From positions 1-64,000 of IMG/VR virus record IMGVR_UViG_3300034104_005002: a DNA stretch of 64,000 bases, one strand, 5' to 3'. The stretch's first letter is position 1; the number at the start of each line of letters is the position of its first letter. The translations under genes and the position numbers were made by a program. This document shows, in pieces, positions 3,396 through 19,559 of the stretch. The stretch is from a virus. The notes beneath the pieces are model-generated. The model was given only the letters and a program-made list of their open reading frames with translations, did not search any database and was not told where the DNA came from.

Positions 3396-5735
3396 TCACT
3401 CTGCTTTAGCGAAGAAATTGTGCAAGCATTGGCTTGCATTAATTCTTACATGCTCAAGAGTATAATCAACCAAAAGTTGACCATTCTCATAAATAGTTAC
3501 TAACTCGTCTTTATTCCAGGGTCTTTCTGGAACAGTCTGATATTCTCCTTGTTCATTTTTGATGAGCTGAAGTCTACCTTTTTTAGATGTTTTGCCTGGG
3601 TCGGTTACAGGGTCTTTATAAACGTCACGCCAGGTTCCGTTTACATTTACCGAACTGCACTTCATTGCGAATTTAAAATCATCACGATTTACGTGTTGAA
3701 GCAATCCGCCACCTTGACCGAAGGCAATGTTATCCGAACTGTATCCATTTGCTTCTAGAACGTGAAGAACCCGGTCAATAGTTTCATAATTCACACCGTC
3801 CCCTTGAATGAGTCTGACGTGATTTAGAACCTTATAACCCTTAGAGTTCATAGTACTTCCAAAGTGATTATCCAAAAGTTGGGCGCACTTTAGATTGACT
3901 TCTACTGGGTCCCCAGAATTACCAGAAACCGCGATTCCCCTATTCCTTTTTACTAGAACCATTCCACTAGGAACTTTAACGCAATGTATAGTTCCTTTAT
4001 AATTTACTTTAGTTTTAGTAATAGATTGCCCACCAGCATAGGGAGTATCTAATATGTGGGTAGTATAGACTGTAGAGAAATGTGGTTTTCTATTGTCCTC
4101 CGCTACTGAAATTAAAACCCCCTTCCCAGCTGAAATAGAAATGTATTCTACTACATCCACGTTAGATTTGATAGTGGTATCATACTTAAATCTACCATCG
4201 TTTCTAATGGACGAATCCCAATGCTTCAATTCTTCGATGAATTGTTCACACCAATTGCCATCTAAATTAGAAATGTCAACCCAATCAAATGTTTTAGATA
4301 CTAAATTATCTATGGGAACTGAAATAGTTATAGTAGATTGACCTTTTCTACTAGTAAGATAATACACATTAAATTTATAATCTAGATTATTAAGTATATT
4401 AAGTAATCTGTTGTGCTTTCGTTCCTTTTGAAAATTAAATTCTATTTTATAATTCATTGAAGATGCTTTTTTAATACATCCATCTGCTTGTAGAGCGATT
4501 AAAAATCTCTCATGCCAAGTTAGTTGTTTTCCGGATGTCTTTGCTTTTGCTGAACGCAATTTTCTATAAGCCCAATTTCCTGGTTTATAATCTTGAGCCT
4601 CTTGTATACGAATTTTATCATTTCGATCAATAGTTACCACCCTATGATTGGGTGTAACTAATAGATCAATTTTACCATGAAAATCACGAATTTCATACAT
4701 ATCCCCCTCATATTGTTCATTTACAATTTTAAGAGGTTTAACAAATTCATAAGTCATGTCATCATTAACTTGTGCAACTAGATCGTTCTCTGTTAGGTTA
4801 GAAAAATATTTCCATCCACTAGGAGTCAAAATCTGCGTCTGATCGTCGTAGCAATCAGGCCTGACCACCAAGGTAGCCCCAGATTCAATTACTTGTTCTT
4901 TAAGTTCTTCTCCCCAAAGTTTATCGCAAGCATTGTAGATGTCATAACTATCACTTACACAAGCAATAATAGCACCCGGCCTCGCATAAAGATTCAACAT
5001 ATTACGATATGCCTCTACTTCATTTTCCTTACCCCAACTCGTGATAGTACTATGTTCTGATGCTGGAATACTGTAGCCCGCCATATCTTCGTGATAAAAT
5101 TCTTTACCATAAAGAAGCGCCGCAACAGTGTCGGTGCCCTTAAAATTAACTAGGTGAGCTAGTCCACCAATTCCTGCTGATTCATAAGAACTCACTCCGC
5201 GAAATCCAAAGTCTTGCATCTTAAAATCAATGAGATTCGGGTCTCCATTGCGGATAAGATAATTGAGAATAAGTTTCTTAGAATTATAAGAATTACTTGC
5301 AACAGTCGTTGGATACCAAATTGCGCGAAGTAGAGCAGTCTCTAAGAAACTAGTTAACCAATAGCAATTTGGGTCGGTATTTTCAATTGTAAGCAAAACA
5401 TTCTTGACAGGAATTACCATTCCTTCTGGAACAGCCTTGATTCTTACGGGGAGATATCCACCGTGCTTTTTGACAATGTATTCCCAACCACCGCGGTAGA
5501 AAGGTTCACCGTGAGCCTGAATAATTGCCTCGGCAATATCAATATCTTCCATCCTAATTGGTTTCATCAGATAGTCTTTTAGAAACATCTGAAGGCCAAA
5601 GAATAGCGTTTCATCGTGATGACCACCACGACTTTCAATGTAAGAAAATACACCTTCCGTCTGTGTGGGATATTGTGGAAACTGAGAATACTTATAGGAA
5701 TCCGAGTTGAGCAGTAAATTTTTGTTTAGGTCCAT
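3396..5735 (-). CDS. nadV: Nicotinamide phosphoribosyltransferase (NAMPT/NadV) precursor containing an intein
   Basis: DSYKYS, DFGFRG, IPASEHS, VSDSYD, split RPD|SGD, IQGDG, FGQGGGLL and KDPVTDPGKTSKKG motifs. Confidence 0.95.
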   Translation of the reverse strand: MDLNKNLLLNSDSYKYSQFPQYPTQTEGVFSYIESRGGHHDETLFFGLQMFLKDYLMKPIRMEDIDIAEAIIQAHGEPFYRGGWEYIVKKHGGYLPVRIKAVPEGMVIPVKNVLLTIENTDPNCYWLTSFLETALLRAIWYPTTVASNSYNSKKLILNYLIRNGDPNLIDFKMQDFGFRGVSSYESAGIGGLAHLVNFKGTDTVAALLYGKEFYHEDMAGYSIPASEHSTITSWGKENEVEAYRNMLNLYARPGAIIACVSDSYDIYNACDKLWGEELKEQVIESGATLVVRPDCYDDQTQILTPSGWKYFSNLTENDLVAQVNDDMTYEFVKPLKIVNEQYEGDMYEIRDFHGKIDLLVTPNHRVVTIDRNDKIRIQEAQDYKPGNWAYRKLRSAKAKTSGKQLTWHERFLIALQADGCIKKASSMNYKIEFNFQKERKHNRLLNILNNLDYKFNVYYLTSRKGQSTITISVPIDNLVSKTFDWVDISNLDGNWCEQFIEELKHWDSSIRNDGRFKYDTTIKSNVDVVEYISISAGKGVLISVAEDNRKPHFSTVYTTHILDTPYAGGQSITKTKVNYKGTIHCVKVPSGMVLVKRNRGIAVSGNSGDPVEVNLKCAQLLDNHFGSTMNSKGYKVLNHVRLIQGDGVNYETIDRVLHVLEANGYSSDNIAFGQGGGLLQHVNRDDFKFAMKCSSVNVNGTWRDVYKDPVTDPGKTSKKGRLQLIKNEQGEYQTVPERPWNKDELVTIYENGQLLVDYTLEHVRINASQCLHNFFAKAE
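3918..4853 (-). mobile_element. Cis intein (312 aa) with LAGLIDADG-like endonuclease domain in NAMPT
   Basis: Starts CYDDQTQILT, block B VTPNHRV, LIALQADG, ends HCVKVPSG...SGN before Ser+1; removing it restores RPDSGDP. Confidence 0.92.
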
Positions 5736-6313: not shown

Positions 6314-7360
6314 TCAGATAAAATATCGAATAATTTGATAATGGTCTTCAAAGCACTCTCTTGGGTCAAGTTCAGAGAAAGGAATCCAGAATGCCTTATC
6401 AGCATCAGAACCACCTTTTACTCTTGGAAGTTCTCCATCAGGAAGAACAATATTAAAGGCATGAGTAATTGTTCGCCCTCGGCTGCTTCTATAAATATCA
6501 TCAAATACATGAGTATTTTTAATACATCCACGAAGAACCGGAGAAGGAACCTTAAGTCCGGTTTCCTCTCGGAGTTCTCGAATCATAGCATCTTCTAGGG
6601 AGGAATCGGTGTTTGCGTCTAGAAAACCGCCTGGCAAGGCAATCAGGCCCTTTCCAGGATAGGCATTTCTACGGACCATCAAGACATGACCAGATTGAAA
6701 CACTACAGAATCTACTGTAACAAAAATTGGTGGCCAGGGCAAGGAAGCATACTGAGACTTATATTTCTCGACAAATCTACGCTCATTTACGATATGATTA
6801 TGCCATTCAGAACTCTTCATACTATCAAGATAGTTAAAGATTTTTTCTGGAACAACACTCTTTACAAAATCCATATTAGGTTCTTCGACAAAGTAGAGTT
6901 CCCTGATCTGAGTTGCACTTAGATTTTGCTCAAGAGGAACCTCAATTAGTTCCCATTGTGGGAACATCTTCAGGTAATAAGAAGTCTCGTCTTTTTCACA
7001 ACCGATGATACCAACATTAGCAGATGGTGAAATAGTCTCAAGACAATATTTTACCTTTTCTTGAACTTCATTACACCACTTGGTATCACCATAAATATCT
7101 TCTTGAATTTCAATTTCTAGTGGAGCTTCTTCTGAAGTCACTTCTAAAATGGATTGCCTCAAGGCAGACCAGTAACTATGAGTATTCAGGTGCTCAAGAG
7201 AAATTTGAAATGGATTTTTGTAGGTTACTGGTTTATACTGAGAACCAATAATCATAATGAGATTATCAGTCAGTTCATATGCTCTTTTTACAATTTCTAG
7301 ATGAGCATTATGAAAAGGCTGAAATCTTCCAATAAAAACAATTGCGTCGTATTTTTTCAT
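6314..7360 (-). CDS. nadM: Bifunctional NMN adenylyltransferase / Nudix ADP-ribose pyrophosphatase (NadM-Nudix)
   Basis: IGRFQPFHNAH (HxGH-like), LSATQIR, Nudix box GGF...AMIRELREETGL, RSSRGRTITHA. Confidence 0.93.
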   Translation of the reverse strand: MKKYDAIVFIGRFQPFHNAHLEIVKRAYELTDNLIMIIGSQYKPVTYKNPFQISLEHLNTHSYWSALRQSILEVTSEEAPLEIEIQEDIYGDTKWCNEVQEKVKYCLETISPSANVGIIGCEKDETSYYLKMFPQWELIEVPLEQNLSATQIRELYFVEEPNMDFVKSVVPEKIFNYLDSMKSSEWHNHIVNERRFVEKYKSQYASLPWPPIFVTVDSVVFQSGHVLMVRRNAYPGKGLIALPGGFLDANTDSSLEDAMIRELREETGLKVPSPVLRGCIKNTHVFDDIYRSSRGRTITHAFNIVLPDGELPRVKGGSDADKAFWIPFSELDPRECFEDHYQIIRYFI

Positions 7361-10923: not shown

Positions 10924-11361
10924 GTGTGGTATTTTAACGGTCAAGAATTTAATGAGGTCGATAAAAAGTATGAGGGATTTGTTTACTTAATAACAAACCT
11001 AGAAAACGGGATGAAGTACATTGGAAAGAAACACTTCTGGGAAAGAAGAAAAAACGCAAAGACTGGAAGAAGACAGACAAAAGAAAGTGATTGGAGAAAA
11101 TATTTCGGTAGTTGCGACCAACTAAAAGAAGACGTTAAATCTTTAGGTGAAAACAAGTTCAAAAGAGAAATTTTGTATTTATGCCCTCATAAAAAAAGTA
11201 TGTCCTATTATGAGACATGCGAGCAGTTTAAAAGAAATGTTTTATTAGATGAGGCCTATTATAATACTAATATTGAAGGAAAATTTTATTCTAGCGAAGT
11301 AGAAAGAATCTATGGGCTGGTTATTTCAGGAGAGAATCCACAAGGAAAAGAACCTCATTGA
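10924..11361 (+). CDS. GIY-YIG family endonuclease (Seg-like)
   Basis: GFVYLITN...KYIGKK, YFGS, FKREIL and YYNTNI motifs. Confidence 0.8.
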
Positions 11362-13011: not shown

Positions 13012-14160
13012 TCAAAGTTTGAAGTTGGCGAAACTATCTGGTTTAATGTCCTGATTAAGACCCCCTACTAGATAAGAAGTAATCTGAACCTCTTGAGGTG
13101 CAACCTGCACCCCCTTTGAACTGAGCCAGTTATCCGTCCATGGAAGAGGATTATTATTGGCCGGAATATCATAAAGAGGTTTAAAACCAATAGCCTTCAT
13201 ACGTCTATTACAAACCCACTCAACATATTGACAAAGAAGAGCGGAGTTTAACCCTATAAGTGAGCCGTCTTTAAAAATATATTCGGCCCATCTTTTTTCT
13301 TGATTAACTGCTTCTTCAAATGTCTTATAAACCCATTGCTCTTCTTCTTTTGCAATTTTAATCATATCAGGATCGTCGCCTGATTTCCATTTTGAAAGAA
13401 TATTTTGAGTTATATTTAAATGAACGGCTTCATCGCGGCTAATTAGCGAAATAATCTTCGCACTTCCTTCCATTAACTTCAGCTCACCAAAGGCAAAAGA
13501 ACAAGCAAAGGAAACATAAAAGCGAATTCCTTCTAGGATATTCACTGCCATTATGGCTCGATAAAGTTTTCTCTTTACCTCATAAAGCTCATTTTTACCT
13601 AAATCTACACCCTCATTATTAAATTGCCAAAGATTTGAAGAAGAGTATTGTTGAGCATGTTGAATATATTCATCGTAATTATCAGTAATACTCTTGGCTC
13701 TCTCTAAAATTCTCTCATCTCCAATAATAGTATCAAATATTTCGGATGGATTAGCATAGATATTTTTTATAATATAAGTATATGATCGACTATGGATCAT
13801 TTCCATGAATCCCCAGGCTTCTATACATGATTCAAGTTCTGGTAAAGAACAATATGGCAGAAAAGCAATTGAAGTTCCTCGACCCTGAACAGAATCAAGC
13901 ATAATCTGATACTTTAAATTAGAAGTATAAATGTGTTTTTGCTCTGAGCGAAGAGTCTGATAATCTGCCCTATCTTTTTGAAGATTTATTTCTTCTGGAC
14001 GCCAAAAGAAACTGAGCTGCTGTTGTGTGAGTTTTTCAAAAATTGGGTATTTATACTCATCATATCGTTGGATCCCCAATGGAGCACTAAAAAACATTTT
14101 TTGCTTTTTAGTGTTAATTTCTTCTGTATTAAAAACTGTCATTCCTTTTACTTTAGACAT
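13012..14160 (-). CDS. nrdB: Ribonucleotide reductase class Ia beta subunit
   Basis: FFWRPEE, LDSVQGR, EMIHSRSY, LEGIRFYVSF, RDEAVH and VQVAPQE motifs. Confidence 0.97.
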   Translation of the reverse strand: MSKVKGMTVFNTEEINTKKQKMFFSAPLGIQRYDEYKYPIFEKLTQQQLSFFWRPEEINLQKDRADYQTLRSEQKHIYTSNLKYQIMLDSVQGRGTSIAFLPYCSLPELESCIEAWGFMEMIHSRSYTYIIKNIYANPSEIFDTIIGDERILERAKSITDNYDEYIQHAQQYSSSNLWQFNNEGVDLGKNELYEVKRKLYRAIMAVNILEGIRFYVSFACSFAFGELKLMEGSAKIISLISRDEAVHLNITQNILSKWKSGDDPDMIKIAKEEEQWVYKTFEEAVNQEKRWAEYIFKDGSLIGLNSALLCQYVEWVCNRRMKAIGFKPLYDIPANNNPLPWTDNWLSSKGVQVAPQEVQITSYLVGGLNQDIKPDSFANFKL

Positions 14161-14172
14161 AAATTTCCTAGA

Positions 14173-14715
14173 TTAAACGTTACATGCGATACATTCTTCT
14201 TCTTCTGATGATAATATTTCAGATATTAAATCATCATTTTTAATTTCTTCGGCGGAAACATCATCGGTTTTGCCGTCATATGTGTTATGATAATATGCAG
14301 TTTTTGCACCATATTTGTATAGTAAAAGAATATTATTGACTATAACAGTGATCGGTACTTCATTATTTGGATAATTCTGAGGATTATAACTATCATTTAC
14401 ACTAATTCCCTGGTCAACGAACTTTTGCATAATAGAGACACAATTAATATATCCTTCATTTGAAGGCATTTCCCAGAGAAGTGTATAATTATTCTTTAGT
14501 TTATTATACTGAGGTACAATCTGTTTGAGAGTTCCCTTTTTAGATTGTTTAATGGAAAGATAATCCCTAGGAGGTTCTATTCCATTTGTTGCATTACACG
14601 AAACTGAACTATTATGAGATACTAGTCCTTCACAGTTGTAATGATGTACTTCCGGAACTTCAATGTCATAAGTTGGAAGAATTTCTCCTTCAAATTGAAT
14701 CGTTTTTACTTTCAT
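14173..14715 (-). CDS. nrdA: NrdA fragment 3 (C-terminal 145 aa) fused to split-intein IntC2
   Basis: After ..VSHN| come SSVSCNATNGIEPPR, QKFVDQGIS, KTAYYHNT and the C-terminal CIAC. Confidence 0.93.
   Translation of the reverse strand: MKVKTIQFEGEILPTYDIEVPEVHHYNCEGLVSHNSSVSCNATNGIEPPRDYLSIKQSKKGTLKQIVPQYNKLKNNYTLLWEMPSNEGYINCVSIMQKFVDQGISVNDSYNPQNYPNNEVPITVIVNNILLLYKYGAKTAYYHNTYDGKTDDVSAEEIKNDDLISEILSSEEEECIACNV
14611..14715 (-). mobile_element. Split intein 2, C-fragment (35 aa)
   Basis: MKVKTI...TYDIEVPEVHHY...LVSHN followed by Ser+1 (blocks F and G). Confidence 0.92.
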
Positions 14716-15766
14716 GTGTCTCCTTAAATTTTTTGTACTCGGTTAAAAGGTGGGTTTTAGTAATAGAACATTTATGTTGTTTTGAGCCATTAATACTCGC
14801 TGGAAGTATCTCTAAATTTACTATTGATCCAATTATTTCAGCTGGAATATTATTTATAAATCCCATTTTAATTGAATATTTGTGATCTAATTGAAAGTCT
14901 TTAGATCTCAATTCTAAATTCTCAATCAATTCTCCATAAAATAATAAACTCTGATTAGTATATCTAATTACAAGCGTTTTATATTTTTTAAAGTCGTCAG
15001 CAATGTCATTTTCAATCCATACTCCTAACTCCTCCATTCTTTTTCTATATTTTTCAGATACTTCAAGATAAATCTCTTGCCAAGTATCGGGGTATTTTTC
15101 ACGGAGATAATTGGTGTTTCTTTTATGATTGGGTTTTTTCTTATCTATTTCATTAAAAATAACAGCAATTTCATCTTCACTATATCCTCTTTGTCTATAA
15201 TATTCTCTATGAACACCAGAGGTTGATCTTTGATATTTACTAACTTCAATTTTAGCTTCTTCTAAACTATATCCACGATGGGTCCAATATTCTACAGTTC
15301 GTTTAGATTTTCTTTTCATAGCATATGCTTTTTCTTCTTCCCATGTTTCCCCATATTTTTCTTTGAACCATTCATCGGAAGACGGATATGCGCTGGTTAA
15401 TCTAAATTTTTCATACATTTCTAATCCTTTTTCTTCTCCATATCTTTTTATAAAAGCCTCTTTTGTTTGACCATTATCTATTTTATTTTGTTTAATAAGC
15501 TCAACAGCTTCATTATAAGAAAGGTTCCTTCTGTACATCCAATATTCTGGTTCATATTGAAGTTTTCTTTTATTTGGGTATAGAAAAACATAACTAACAT
15601 ATTTTTTAATAACCTCAAGATCAAATCTCTCTGGCGGGGTTTCTTCAAATGGCTTTCTTAATGACCTATAGTCAATTTTTCCGATTTGTTTCAATTCTGT
15701 TAAGAGTTCGTGCGGGGTTAAAATGTTAAATCTGGTTTTCATTAGAGTAACTAGTTTTGTCTTCAT
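14690..15766 (-). mobile_element. Free-standing HNH-like homing endonuclease between nrdA fragments 2 and 3
   Basis: Repeated YW..RG.S.EEA units; C-terminal LDHKYSI..GF.N.IP...NL.....N..K...CSI; paralog of 17508..18503. Confidence 0.75.
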
Positions 15767-15767
15767 T

Positions 15768-15811
15768 GATGCCTTTACTAAACTATTATTATTTAGTAAA
15801 GTGAAGGCATC
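15768..15811 (-). promoter_or_regulatory. RBS-sequestering hairpin containing a late promoter (TAAATA, 15790-15795) upstream of the endonuclease gene
   Basis: GATGCCTT..TACTAAA / TTTAGTA AAGGCATC inverted repeat ending 1 nt before the ATG. Confidence 0.75.
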
Positions 15812-15817
15812 AACGCA

Positions 15818-17518
15818 TTAAATCTCAACTACTTCGTCATCTTCATTCAATTCATAAACTCGCTTCCAGATAGTGGAACCATTTTCTAGTCGAACCAAAA
15901 ACTTATGATTGGGTGTACACTTAATCACTTTACCATTTTCAAAGGTAATAGTCGCAACTTCTTTATTTCCATTGAAATAAAGTTTATCAACTTCTTTGTA
16001 TCCATCTTGAGTTTCAACTGTAATAGTCTTGTTCAGGTCATACCAGCCGATTGCATCATTTTCCTCAATCCCTCTCCAATCAAGTCCACCATATTCGGCA
16101 ATTTGATGGAAGTCCATTTCCCCGGTAGAAGTTTTAATCTTATGTTCCCAAAAAAGGCAACTCTCCGTTGGGGGTTGAGAGGAGAGTGTAGTATGGCGAA
16201 GACCATGTTCTAAAATATCCTGACGAAGTTGTTCCCAGTCATGAGTATATTCTACATCACAAATTTCATCAACTTCTTTCTTATAAGTATCAATTGGAAG
16301 AATTCCATCAGAATACTTAGTGTGTTTAAAGTTGTCACATGCACCCTTTTCTTTTGCTAGATTATTGGATGATTTTAGAAGATAATACTGAAAACTTTCA
16401 GTTAATTTGTGGACGGCTTCCCAGGCGCCAGGATCAGAATATTTAAATCCCAATTTAGCAAGATAATGAGCCAGACCAATATAACCAATACCTAGAGAAC
16501 GACTAGCCTTGGTTGTTAATTCGGCGGCCTTAACAGGATATTCCTGGTGGTCAATTAGCTCATCTAAAAATCTAACGGAAAGATCACAACATTCTTCAAG
16601 TTCTTTATCAGACTTAATTGTACCTACATTAACACAAGAAAGAATACAAAGAGCAATAGATCCATCTACATCATCAATATGTTCAATCGGGGTAGTTTTC
16701 AGCAAAATTTCCATACAAAGATTACTCATTGTAATCTGATCCTTAAAAGGACCGTGCGAATTACAATGATCAATATTCATAAGATAAATTCGACCGGTCT
16801 CCGCACGCTCTTTCAAGATATCAATAATAAGCTCTTGGGCCTTTACTTTTTTCTTTGGAATAGAAGGATCATTTTCATACTTTACATAAAGTTCATCAAA
16901 TCCATCTAAACCAAATTTTTCATAAAGACCTGGAACATTATGCGGTGAAAACAGAGTAATTTCTCCATCCTGAATAAATCGCTCATAAAAAATTTTACTC
17001 AGCTGAATGGCATAATCAAGGTTGCGAACACGATTATCTTCTGAGCCTTTATTATTTTTTAATACAATAATATCCTCGATTTCTTGGTGCCACACAGGAA
17101 AAAATACTGTGGATGAATTATGAGTTAAAGTAAATTTTCCATTTTTGCCGACAAAATAGTTGTGATATTTATCAACAGTAAAATCATAAAAAGTTTTATC
17201 ACAATTAGATTTATAATTATGATCATTTAAAATGTCAATATAATCACCATAAACCCCTAATCCAAAAATGTTGTCGATTTCCCGTGAGTCCACCCATTTC
17301 TTATTAAGTCCATCATAAAAAGGATGAATACTAGAAGTATAAACAACCTCCCCACCAATAAGAATTTCTTCCTGATATTCTTTTTTTATTGTTGGAGTAA
17401 ATAAATTTGTTACATTTCCAACACAAAATTTATCATCAAATTCGTTATAACAATAGACTCTATCTCCAACGGAGACATCTGAAATTCTTTTCTTTGCCAG
17501 ATTAATTTTAATTTCCAT
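15818..17518 (-). CDS. nrdA: NrdA fragment 2 (catalytic middle 319 aa) flanked by IntC1 at the N-terminus and IntN2 at the C-terminus
   Basis: ..THN|SSTVFFPVWHQEIED, ERAETGRIY, MSNLCMEI, LCILS, RSLGIG, QPPTES|CLFWEH. Confidence 0.93.
   Translation of the reverse strand: MEIKINLAKKRISDVSVGDRVYCYNEFDDKFCVGNVTNLFTPTIKKEYQEEILIGGEVVYTSSIHPFYDGLNKKWVDSREIDNIFGLGVYGDYIDILNDHNYKSNCDKTFYDFTVDKYHNYFVGKNGKFTLTHNSSTVFFPVWHQEIEDIIVLKNNKGSEDNRVRNLDYAIQLSKIFYERFIQDGEITLFSPHNVPGLYEKFGLDGFDELYVKYENDPSIPKKKVKAQELIIDILKERAETGRIYLMNIDHCNSHGPFKDQITMSNLCMEILLKTTPIEHIDDVDGSIALCILSCVNVGTIKSDKELEECCDLSVRFLDELIDHQEYPVKAAELTTKASRSLGIGYIGLAHYLAKLGFKYSDPGAWEAVHKLTESFQYYLLKSSNNLAKEKGACDNFKHTKYSDGILPIDTYKKEVDEICDVEYTHDWEQLRQDILEHGLRHTTLSSQPPTESCLFWEHKIKTSTGEMDFHQIAEYGGLDWRGIEENDAIGWYDLNKTITVETQDGYKEVDKLYFNGNKEVATITFENGKVIKCTPNHKFLVRLENGSTIWKRVYELNEDDEVVEI
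15821..16159 (-). mobile_element. Split intein 2, N-fragment (113 aa)
   Basis: Starts CLFWEHKI, block B CTPNHKFL, ends W....L..DD.V at a stop codon. Confidence 0.92.
17117..17518 (-). mobile_element. Split intein 1, long C-fragment (134 aa)
   Basis: ISDVSVGDRV, block B TSSIHPFY, FYDFTVDKYHNYF, terminal THN before Ser+1. Confidence 0.9.
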
Positions 17519-18503
17519 TTTCGTACTTTTCTAATAAGGTTTCGAGTGTTATTGAGCAATTAGATTGTTTTTTTGAGTTTTCTGATTGAGAAACATATCT
17601 AAGATTATAAATAGATCCAATTATTTTTGGAGGAACATCATTATAAAAACCCCAAAAAACGCTATACATATGATCTAGAGTTTGACTTTTATCAGTTTTG
17701 ACAAAAGTATCTTTATACAATCTTAGAGTTTTTTTTGTTTCGCGTTGAACCTCCTTTTTATAAACGAAAAAAGCATATTCATCACCAATTTCGACACTCT
17801 TTTTATTTTGAATATTAGTTTTTTTGGTTTTTTCAAGTATAGATTCTTGTATATCAAGAGCCTCAAATTTATCGCACCCATATCGTTTCATTATGGCACT
17901 TATAGAATTGTTATCTTGATATTCAGAAACTTTTAATTTTGCTTCTTCTTCGGTATAACCAATTCTAATCCAATAATATATGCTTCTTGGGCTACTTTCT
18001 TTTGAAAATTTTGATACTAATTTTTTTGCATCCTCTAATGAGTGACCCCTATTTAACCAATAATCCACTGTTCTAGGAGAACAACTTCTCCTTCTTTGAC
18101 AACAATATTCATATGCCTCATCATAACTACAATTTAATTTTTGTTGAACATTTTTAATCTCAACATCAAATCTATTTTGAAGATTTTCTTTTCTTTTATT
18201 AAACTTAGCTAGACCCTCCTCCTCTCCGTACTTCTCAATATAAATTTCCAAATCTAAAGGCTTAGATTGAAATTCCCTAACCTTTATTATGGCTTCTTCT
18301 TCGCTAAATCCTCGGGTCATCCAATACTCTTTTGCATTGGGTCTATTATGTTTTTCTTTAAATGGTACATTTTTATCCAAAAATTCCCTGTAAAGTTTCT
18401 GAGCTTCCTCTTGATTTCCATTGGTTTTTTTAAGATAAAAGTAGATACTAAAAGGAGATCTACTTTTTCTAATCGTTTCTTCGTTCCAAATTAAGTCTTC
18501 CAT
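17508..18503 (-). mobile_element. Free-standing HNH-like homing endonuclease between nrdA fragments 1 and 2
   Basis: Three YW..RG.S.EEA-type repeats; LDHMYSV..GF.N.VPP.IIG...NL......ENSKKQ.NCSI. Confidence 0.75.
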
Positions 18504-18506
18504 TTT

Positions 18507-19559
18507 TTACTCCAATAACATAACGGTTTTATTTCCGTTATGACTATTTATAATTTCAGACACTTTAACCCCATCAATTTCATCATCGAGTGTATAAATT
18601 TTACCATCAATTTCTACACTATCAATTAATAAAACTTCAGAATCAGAATCAAAACAACCCCCGCGAATTCCATTTTGCGTACAACTTTTTACAGTGGCCT
18701 CAAACTTTTTCAGATAAGGAATAACTCCAGTGTGGACAACCTCACCGCCACGAATTTTACTATTTATTCCTCTAATACGCCCAGCATTAATACCTAGACC
18801 GGCTCGCTGTGCGACATATCTAAAAACCGCAGCATCACTGGCCTCAATGCTAGAAAGACTATCTCCCACGTCAACAAGAACACAACTACTATATTGCCTC
18901 AATCTAGTTCTGACTCCAGCAAGAATTGGTGTAGGAATATTAATTTTATGTTTACTAATTGCATCATAATAACGCTTCACATAAGACATTCTTTTGTCTT
19001 TAGGGTATTTTGCAAAGCCCGTAAGAGCAATTAATAAGTACATAAACTGCGGAGTCTCATAAAGAACGTTATCCACTCGGTCTTGCACAAGATACTTATC
19101 AACTACCTGCCGAAGGCCAGCATAAGTAAACAAAAGATCCCGGTCATGGTCAATAAAAGAATTGACCAAATCTAGTTCTTCTTCAGAATAGTTCTCATAA
19201 ATGGAGGCATCATAAACACCAAGGTCTACACACTTTTTAATGTGCTCACTCAGATGAGGTAGATCAATTCGACCACCATAGATCTTCTTCCGAATTGAAA
19301 ACAGAAGAAGTCTTGCGGCCACGTATTGATAATTAGGATTATCTAGAGAAATAAGATCAGATGCGGCCTTGATCAAGATTTCTTGAATTTCATTGGTTGA
19401 AATACCATCATAAAATTGAATCCCAGATGCCATTTCTACCTGAGATACTGAAACTCCAGAAAGGCCCTCACATGCGCAGGCGACCATCTCATGGAGTTTA
19501 GAAAGTTGCAATGGCTCAATAGTGCCATTGCGTTTTTTGACTTTGATTTCTTCGCTCAT
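18507..19559 (-). CDS. nrdA: NrdA fragment 1 (ATP cone, N-terminal 301 aa) fused to split-intein IntN1
   Basis: VKKRNG ATP cone, DKYLVQDR, YETPQF, PTPILAGVRT, QYSSCVL, QNGIRGG|CF. Confidence 0.93.
   Translation of the reverse strand: MSEEIKVKKRNGTIEPLQLSKLHEMVACACEGLSGVSVSQVEMASGIQFYDGISTNEIQEILIKAASDLISLDNPNYQYVAARLLLFSIRKKIYGGRIDLPHLSEHIKKCVDLGVYDASIYENYSEEELDLVNSFIDHDRDLLFTYAGLRQVVDKYLVQDRVDNVLYETPQFMYLLIALTGFAKYPKDKRMSYVKRYYDAISKHKINIPTPILAGVRTRLRQYSSCVLVDVGDSLSSIEASDAAVFRYVAQRAGLGINAGRIRGINSKIRGGEVVHTGVIPYLKKFEATVKSCTQNGIRGGCFDSDSEVLLIDSVEIDGKIYTLDDEIDGVKVSEIINSHNGNKTVMLLE
18510..18656 (-). mobile_element. Split intein 1, short N-fragment (49 aa)
   Basis: CFDSDSEVLL block A directly after GIRGG; no block B before the stop codon. 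Confidence 0.85.

Follow-up and report, generated by a model that had tools for sequence, protein, structure and literature searches.

Is an essential phage enzyme, encoded in three fragments, joined into one chain by two protein trans-splicing reactions? The question is raised by nrdA, the gene for the alpha subunit of class Ia ribonucleotide reductase, in IMG/VR virus record IMGVR_UViG_3300034104_005002, a 161 kb T4-like, cyanophage-like genome whose first 64 kb (64,000 nucleotides; the window) were analysed. The original prediction, made from the letters of the window before any database search, read nrdA as three open reading frames (ORFs) bordered by the halves of two different split inteins, and proposed that both inteins ligate the fragments.

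An nrdA gene in three pieces

All three pieces lie on the minus strand, in the T4-like gene order primase, nrdA, nrdB. Piece 1 (18507-19559, 350 amino acids, aa) comprises extein residues 1-301, with the ATP cone, the C225-equivalent and loop 2, followed by the N-terminal half of the first intein (IntN1). Piece 2 (15818-17518, 566 aa) begins with the C-terminal half of the same intein (IntC1), continues with extein residues 302-620, which carry the equivalents of N437/C439/E441 and C462, and ends in the N-terminal half of the second intein (IntN2). Piece 3 (14173-14715, 180 aa) consists of IntC2 and extein residues 621-765, including the tyrosine pair (YY) and the C-terminal CxxC. Directly downstream of piece 3 lies nrdB (13012-14160, minus strand), an intact class Ia beta subunit. 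The closest cultured NrdA relatives are those of Synechococcus myoviruses (71-74% identity); the listed sequencing runs that contain the window are mainly lake-water metagenomes, and no RNA run is among them.

Removal of the four intein halves (49, 134, 113 and 35 residues) leaves exteins of 301+319+145 = 765 aa, with a mass of 86.6 kDa. Aligned with four intact NrdAs, the in-silico joined protein shows 525-561 identities over 765 residues (about 73% identity), the first gap does not occur before residue 738, and neither junction has an indel; the intact relatives read GIRGG-S at the first junction and SES-S at the second. The Pfam profile PF02867 is tiled by the three pieces (1-79, 79-392, 392-523), and the positions of PRK09103 are spread over them likewise (1-301, 300-624, 622-751). 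The catalytic motifs of the joined protein are SSC at 224, NLCME at 433, LCIL at 457, YY at 726 and CxxC at 760, so that all the features of a class Ia NrdA are present: ATP cone, barrel with the C225, N437, C439, E441 and C462 equivalents, the equivalents of Y730/Y731, the C-terminal Cys pair and an adjacent nrdB. The breaks correspond to positions 300/301 and 624/625 of Escherichia coli R1; in that enzyme the first is established to be where loop 2 ends, and the second to lie in the substrate-phosphate loop. The anatomy given in the original prediction was thus borne out: ORFs of 350, 566 and 180 aa with intein hidden Markov model matches (PF14890, PF07591, TIGR01445, TIGR01443), a seamless 765-aa product, catalytic residues distributed exactly as it had placed them, and an alignment of the spliced protein, which it had proposed as a check, that agrees with intact NrdA.

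The locus comes from a metagenome-assembled genome, and a similar one in phage CPt10 carries a pseudogene annotation (PMC3653736), so a chimeric assembly or a decaying gene has to be considered. Both breaks are, however, crossed by single contigs of independent runs with 0 differences (17097-18685 at break 1, 14522-16404 at break 2), which also disposes of the assembly error that the original prediction had named as its own possible undoing. Diverged phages show the same architecture, all intein halves are under purifying selection (see below), nrdB is intact, and this is the sole nrdA, no second copy being found in the rest of the genome. Decay or artefact is hardly credible against this evidence.

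Two split inteins and the proposed joining reactions

Three sites in nrdA are distinguished here: site a (after residue 301), site b (the thiyl Cys) and site c (after residue 620). Intein 1, at site a, is atypically split (49+134 aa). IntN1 (18510-18656, minus strand) contains Cys1, block A, a beta-hairpin that is also found in a contiguous allele, and a dual-coded tail; block A is the only block on this half. IntC1 (17117-17518, minus strand) carries block B (TxxxH), the block F Asp and the terminal His-Asn, and is followed by Ser at +1; IntC1 profiles compared with solved structures matched HINT domains (E 3e-9). Cys1 is kept in 10/10 IntN1 sequences, and the block B His, block F Asp and His-Asn in 17/17 IntC1 sequences, so intein 1 has the complete residue set and the HINT fold of a class 1 split intein. 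Intein 2, at site c, is canonically split (113+35 aa). IntN2 (15821-16159, minus strand) is a canonical N-half with Cys1 and block B TxxH, and IntC2 (14611-14715, minus strand) forms the start of piece 3. The class 1 set (Cys1, block B TxxH, block F Asp, His-Asn, +1 nucleophile) is again complete: Cys1 is kept in 10/10 IntN2 sequences, the block B His, block F Asp and His-Asn are invariant, and the block F Asp/His-Asn set is kept in 11/11 IntC2 sequences. The ratio of nonsynonymous to synonymous polymorphism (pN/pS) is 0.24-0.84 for IntN1, 0.28-0.44 for IntC1, 0.13-0.43 for IntN2 and 0.06-0.18 for IntC2; being below 1 in each, it indicates purifying selection on all four halves.

The ESMFold2 complex of IntN1 with IntC1 scored 0.91 (best control, 0.01), beyond a pair-score mark that is reached by 58/80 solved pairs and 2/110 mismatched pairs; runs agreed in at least 98% of contacts and the predicted local distance difference test (pLDDT) of the partners was at least 85. 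The modelled contacts of IntN1 to IntC1 are made by residues 1-18 and 39-48. This pass may be an effect of likeness to solved inteins.

Pairing specificity matters because piece 2 has an IntC-extein-IntN layout, which is otherwise prone to cyclise. Similarity between inteins 1 and 2 is not significant (E 0.4). Since their split points differ, neither wrong pairing is predicted to rebuild one normal intein domain: IntN1+IntC2 (49+35 aa) would be without most of the intein core, and IntN2+IntC1, which would cyclise the middle piece, would duplicate it. Specificity would thus be partly built into the split geometry, in two inteins that are barely alike.

In the mechanism we propose, the three pieces would be translated separately and the two halves of each intein would fold together, so that pieces 1 and 2 meet through IntN1 and IntC1, and pieces 2 and 3 through IntN2 and IntC2. 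Two class 1 trans-splicing reactions (thioester at Cys1, transfer to Ser+1, Asn cyclisation) would then yield one 765-aa NrdA acting with the adjacent NrdB. Assembly of a single NrdA by two trans-splicing reactions, which the original prediction had put forward, is in our judgement very probable, and it is the best reading because the splicing residues are invariant, pN/pS is below 1, IntN1 and IntC1 are modelled as a complex, and there is no other nrdA to supply the enzyme. Several points weigh on the other side. Ser at +1 is native to the empty alleles at both sites and is therefore no evidence of selection; all four intein halves are net acidic, with no obvious complementarity of charge; piece 2 lacks a clear Shine-Dalgarno sequence; the assignment of the endonucleases in the breaks (described below) as HNH is based on a motif and weak fold matches (best Z 5.0); and the NrdA of Aeromonas phage Aeh1 tolerates non-covalent assembly (PMC3045599), so that splicing may be incomplete or dispensable here by analogy.

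This last point leads to a different reading, in which the intein halves are mainly docking clasps, one or both junctions remain unspliced or are just cleaved, and the enzyme is a non-covalent complex of three chains. NrdA-a/NrdA-b of Aeh1 is active without ligation (PMC3045599), and relatives (L159/L160 and L221; L numbers denote fetched loci) have an intein-less, Aeh1-like break near residue 440-450. Clasps do not explain, however, why the intein catalytic residues are invariant in every allele examined, and both breaks fall in the active-site region, which a retained domain of 150-180 aa should disrupt. We consider such a clasped enzyme improbable and retain trans-splicing as the working model.

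Endonuclease genes and probable mobile cassettes

Each break contains a whole free-standing endonuclease ORF, in the order IntN - endonuclease - IntC on the same strand; the original prediction had noted neither these genes nor the atypical split that leaves IntN1 with just 49 aa. Endonuclease 1 (17508-18503, minus strand, 331 aa) has helical repeats and a C-terminal HNH-like domain and overlaps the start of piece 2 by 11 nucleotides (nt); endonuclease 2 (14690-15766, minus strand, 358 aa) is its paralogue (29% identity) and shares 26 nt with the start of piece 3. In the C-terminal domain (model pLDDT 90) D277-H278, N300 and N309 are invariant. The best structural matches of this domain are HNH nucleases, weakly (Z 5.0, root mean square deviation 4.4, 69 aligned), and its Foldseek matches have E >0.5; with the full-length model (predicted template modelling score 0.35) Foldseek found no usable match, and the Atlas search gave weak HNH/NUMOD leads only. 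The window endonucleases have no GIY-YIG or Vsr-like Pfam match; a GIY-YIG nuclease was seen only at site b, in relatives.

The spacer before endonuclease 1 is nearly absent, and putative control elements sit in the last IntN1 codons: the T4-type late promoter motif TATAAATA (18545-18552, minus strand), upstream of endonuclease 1 and inside the IntN1 coding sequence, and an 8-bp RNA hairpin (18519-18542, minus strand, z -2.8) before the endonuclease start. The motif is kept in 9/10 aligned split alleles (L207 has a one-base variant); 90% of the hairpin cells in the aligned alleles are paired, with no covariation beyond that of shuffles. Synonymous divergence is 0.25 in this region, versus 0.44-0.56 in the remaining IntN1, and the motif and hairpin probably serve endonuclease 1. 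The start codon (AUG) of endonuclease 2 is buried in a strong hairpin (15764-15815, minus strand; -24.1 kcal/mol, z -6.1) that includes the late-promoter-like ACTAAATA (15790-15797, minus strand), an element kept in L161, L194, L196, L200, L201, L207 and L208. By analogy with fractured genes, we infer late control of both endonucleases by these elements.

The anatomy of the breaks bears on whether the pieces could be joined at the RNA or translation level, by an intron that removes the endonuclease gene, by read-through or by bypassing, leaving contiguous inteins that splice in cis. Group I introns are known in phage nrdA (for example KP13-7), and Dassa et al. 2009 considered bypassing as an alternative (PMC2677866). 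In the window, endonuclease 1 has the same reading frame as the IntN1 stop, and in L158 one frame is shared by IntN2 and IntC2. Against this, an Rfam search of the window gave no match, and there is no room for an intron core, the gaps being 3 and 51 nt and the 3' ends of the endonuclease genes overlapping the IntC genes. The frames are not conserved either: run X17 lacks 1 nt at 18503, the spacer of L160 is out of frame, and L198 has an additional stop. Piece 3 has its own strong Shine-Dalgarno sequence. Joining before the protein level is accordingly very unlikely, which leaves trans-splicing of separately translated pieces as the preferred account. A specific candidate, a read-through fusion of IntN1 with endonuclease 1, was rejected for its non-conserved frame.

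In L216 and in Campylobacter phage IBB_35 the site of intein 1 is occupied by a contiguous version of it; the IBB_35 intein has the first ~20 residues in common with IntN1 and does not share the promoter-coded tail. The split therefore probably arose when the endonuclease cassette was inserted into the first loop of an uninterrupted intein. Separately, a contiguous site-a intein in L193 (4190-6382, P0017) retains the TATAAATA motif and the hairpin, which suggests re-fusion after loss of the endonuclease, and L213/L221 have a shorter contiguous form. The split state is also retained after endonuclease loss (L158, L160, L198, L210, L211). The homologue of endonuclease 2 is broken into two ORFs in L200 (9014-10100) but whole in L201, which is nearly identical to L200; this suggests nuclease decay in progress.

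The two-break layout recurs. Viral contig searches with whole piece 2 or IntC1+extein were dominated by intact nrdA, and intein-only queries were used instead: 18/38 clusters found with the IntC1 query end in a second IntN, and 13/120 listed clusters that start with a site-b IntC end in IntN2. The loci fetched include nrdA split at a and c (the window, L207, L208, L210, L211), at a and b (L187/188, L191, L192, L202) and at b and c (L194, L196, L198, L200, L201, L233/234); a four-piece allele split at a, b and c was not among them, but the search was limited and does not argue that such alleles are absent. Over 8.8 kb L187 and the window share 99.2% identity, yet in L187 a GIY-YIG gene splits site b and site c is unoccupied; the exteins of the window, L187 and L194 are nearly identical. 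Split alleles are interleaved with empty ones on an extein tree, a quick version with long branches that shows the interleaving and was not used for the order of events. Near-identical exteins with different split sites, together with this interleaving, point to independently mobile split-intein cassettes at the three sites. Their patchy distribution and the co-occurrence of empty and split alleles, with the joined empty alleles of both window sites present as DNA in the same lake habitat, are indirect pointers to homing. On this view IntN, a late-expressed gene for an HNH-like endonuclease, and IntC would together form a mobile cassette at each break, able to home into nrdA alleles that lack it; those at a, b and c would spread independently, and two per allele would give a three-piece gene.

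The layout also occurs in the cultured Klebsiella phage KP13-7 (L228, 2347-7877), whose nrdA comprises four ORFs, split at b and c, with a nuclease-like gene in each break (that at site c related to the window endonucleases), Thr at +1 of site c and, upstream, what is probably a group I intron (E 2e-8, under the Rfam gathering score); two of its nrdA pieces are annotated as hypothetical. Other cultured phages combine states: the nrdA annotated as a pseudogene in Campylobacter phage CPt10 (L227, 2797-6864) seems to have an intact split intein at site b and a cis intein at site c, and IBB_35 (L229) is cis at a, split at b and cis at c. A different three-piece nrdA is found in L159/L160 (L160 1658-6991): first a cis intein at site b, then the intein-less Aeh1-like break with four ORFs, which a break in L221/L222 resembles, and last a site-c split intein with its nuclease reduced to a remnant.

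Inteins and nuclease genes are also present outside nrdA. Close relatives have a contiguous nrdB intein (L194 10654-12768; L158 6936-9074), which the window nrdB is without, and the intein of L158 is related (E 1e-32) to a contiguous intein of ~310 aa in a NadV/NAMPT-like gene of the window (3396-5735, minus strand), adjoined by a NadM-Nudix-like gene (6314-7360). A small free-standing GIY-YIG-like ORF (10924-11361, plus strand) lies opposite in strand to its neighbours and is of the SegE-type family in the sister locus L187.

Comparison with known fractured genes and split inteins

Atypically split inteins include AceL-TerL and VidaL. Others are the terminase intein of the GOS data (PMC2677866) and PolB16 OarG (15+168 aa, PMC10189870). 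Intein 1 is like them in its short IntN with block A only and in having a long IntC that carries blocks B, F and G; it differs in its host NrdA, in an IntN of 49 aa to which a hairpin and a dual-coded tail are added, and in sharing a gene with a canonical split intein. It adds to this group a new member whose predicted chemistry is Cys1/Ser+1.

Fractured genes with split inteins were described by Dassa et al. 2009 (NrdA-1 to -7, gp41, NrdJ, IMPDH), with control elements that follow the work on Aeh1 mobE (PMC2677866). The window shares with them the arrangement on one strand (host N-part with IntN, free-standing endonuclease, IntC with host C-part), the hairpin and late-promoter motif before the endonuclease, a cyanophage-like NrdA, and the overlap of the endonuclease 3' end with the IntC start (6-69 bp there, 11 and 26 nt here). 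The differences are that those loci are fractured in two, only DnaE-1 having part of an additional intein, whereas here two breaks give three pieces; that NrdA is broken at the thiyl Cys (site b) there and at a and c in the window; that their nucleases are GIY-YIG or Vsr-like and those of the window HNH-like; and that at site a of the window the regulatory element lies inside the IntN coding sequence (PMC2677866). Taken singly, either break matches this family, and it is having two of them in one gene that sets the locus apart; the two-break nrdA is a recurrent stacking of cassettes of known type, no one-off. The fractured-gene model, made for a single break, is thereby extended to an active site that is broken repeatedly and independently. 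The nrdA-a/mobE/nrdA-b locus of Aeh1 is alike in that an HNH endonuclease gene with late-promoter and hairpin control breaks a class Ia NrdA, and unlike in having two pieces, no inteins and non-covalent assembly via tails (PMC3045599); both window breaks carry full intein motif sets.

The original prediction had not recognised its three-fragment ligation as described, and our literature search, with most subscription journals outside its coverage, likewise found no natural gene with two split inteins; a natural nrdA with two of them is real, recurrent and apparently undescribed in print. As KP13-7 and CPt10 show, annotation mistakes such loci for hypothetical proteins or pseudogenes, and this biases marker-gene surveys of phage nrdA. 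We think it likely that the locus is a natural, selected case of tandem trans-splicing, in which an essential phage enzyme takes up mutually orthogonal cassettes in varying combinations, orthogonality of a and c comes from split geometry, the phage population swaps ligated active-site junctions, and IntN1 has absorbed the promoter-hairpin of an endonuclease as coding sequence that is now part of the modelled binding interface. Three-fragment ligation has so far been an engineering goal that relies on hand-picked orthogonal inteins; the nrdA loci offer naturally co-evolved sets (a, b, c), and make the avoidance of cyclisation by an IntC-extein-IntN middle piece a testable question. The engineered tandem trans-splicing of three segments (Humberg et al. 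2025, PMC12707363) has the same IntC-segment-IntN middle and two orthogonal inteins; its combinations are artificial, whereas the system of the window is natural and under selection.

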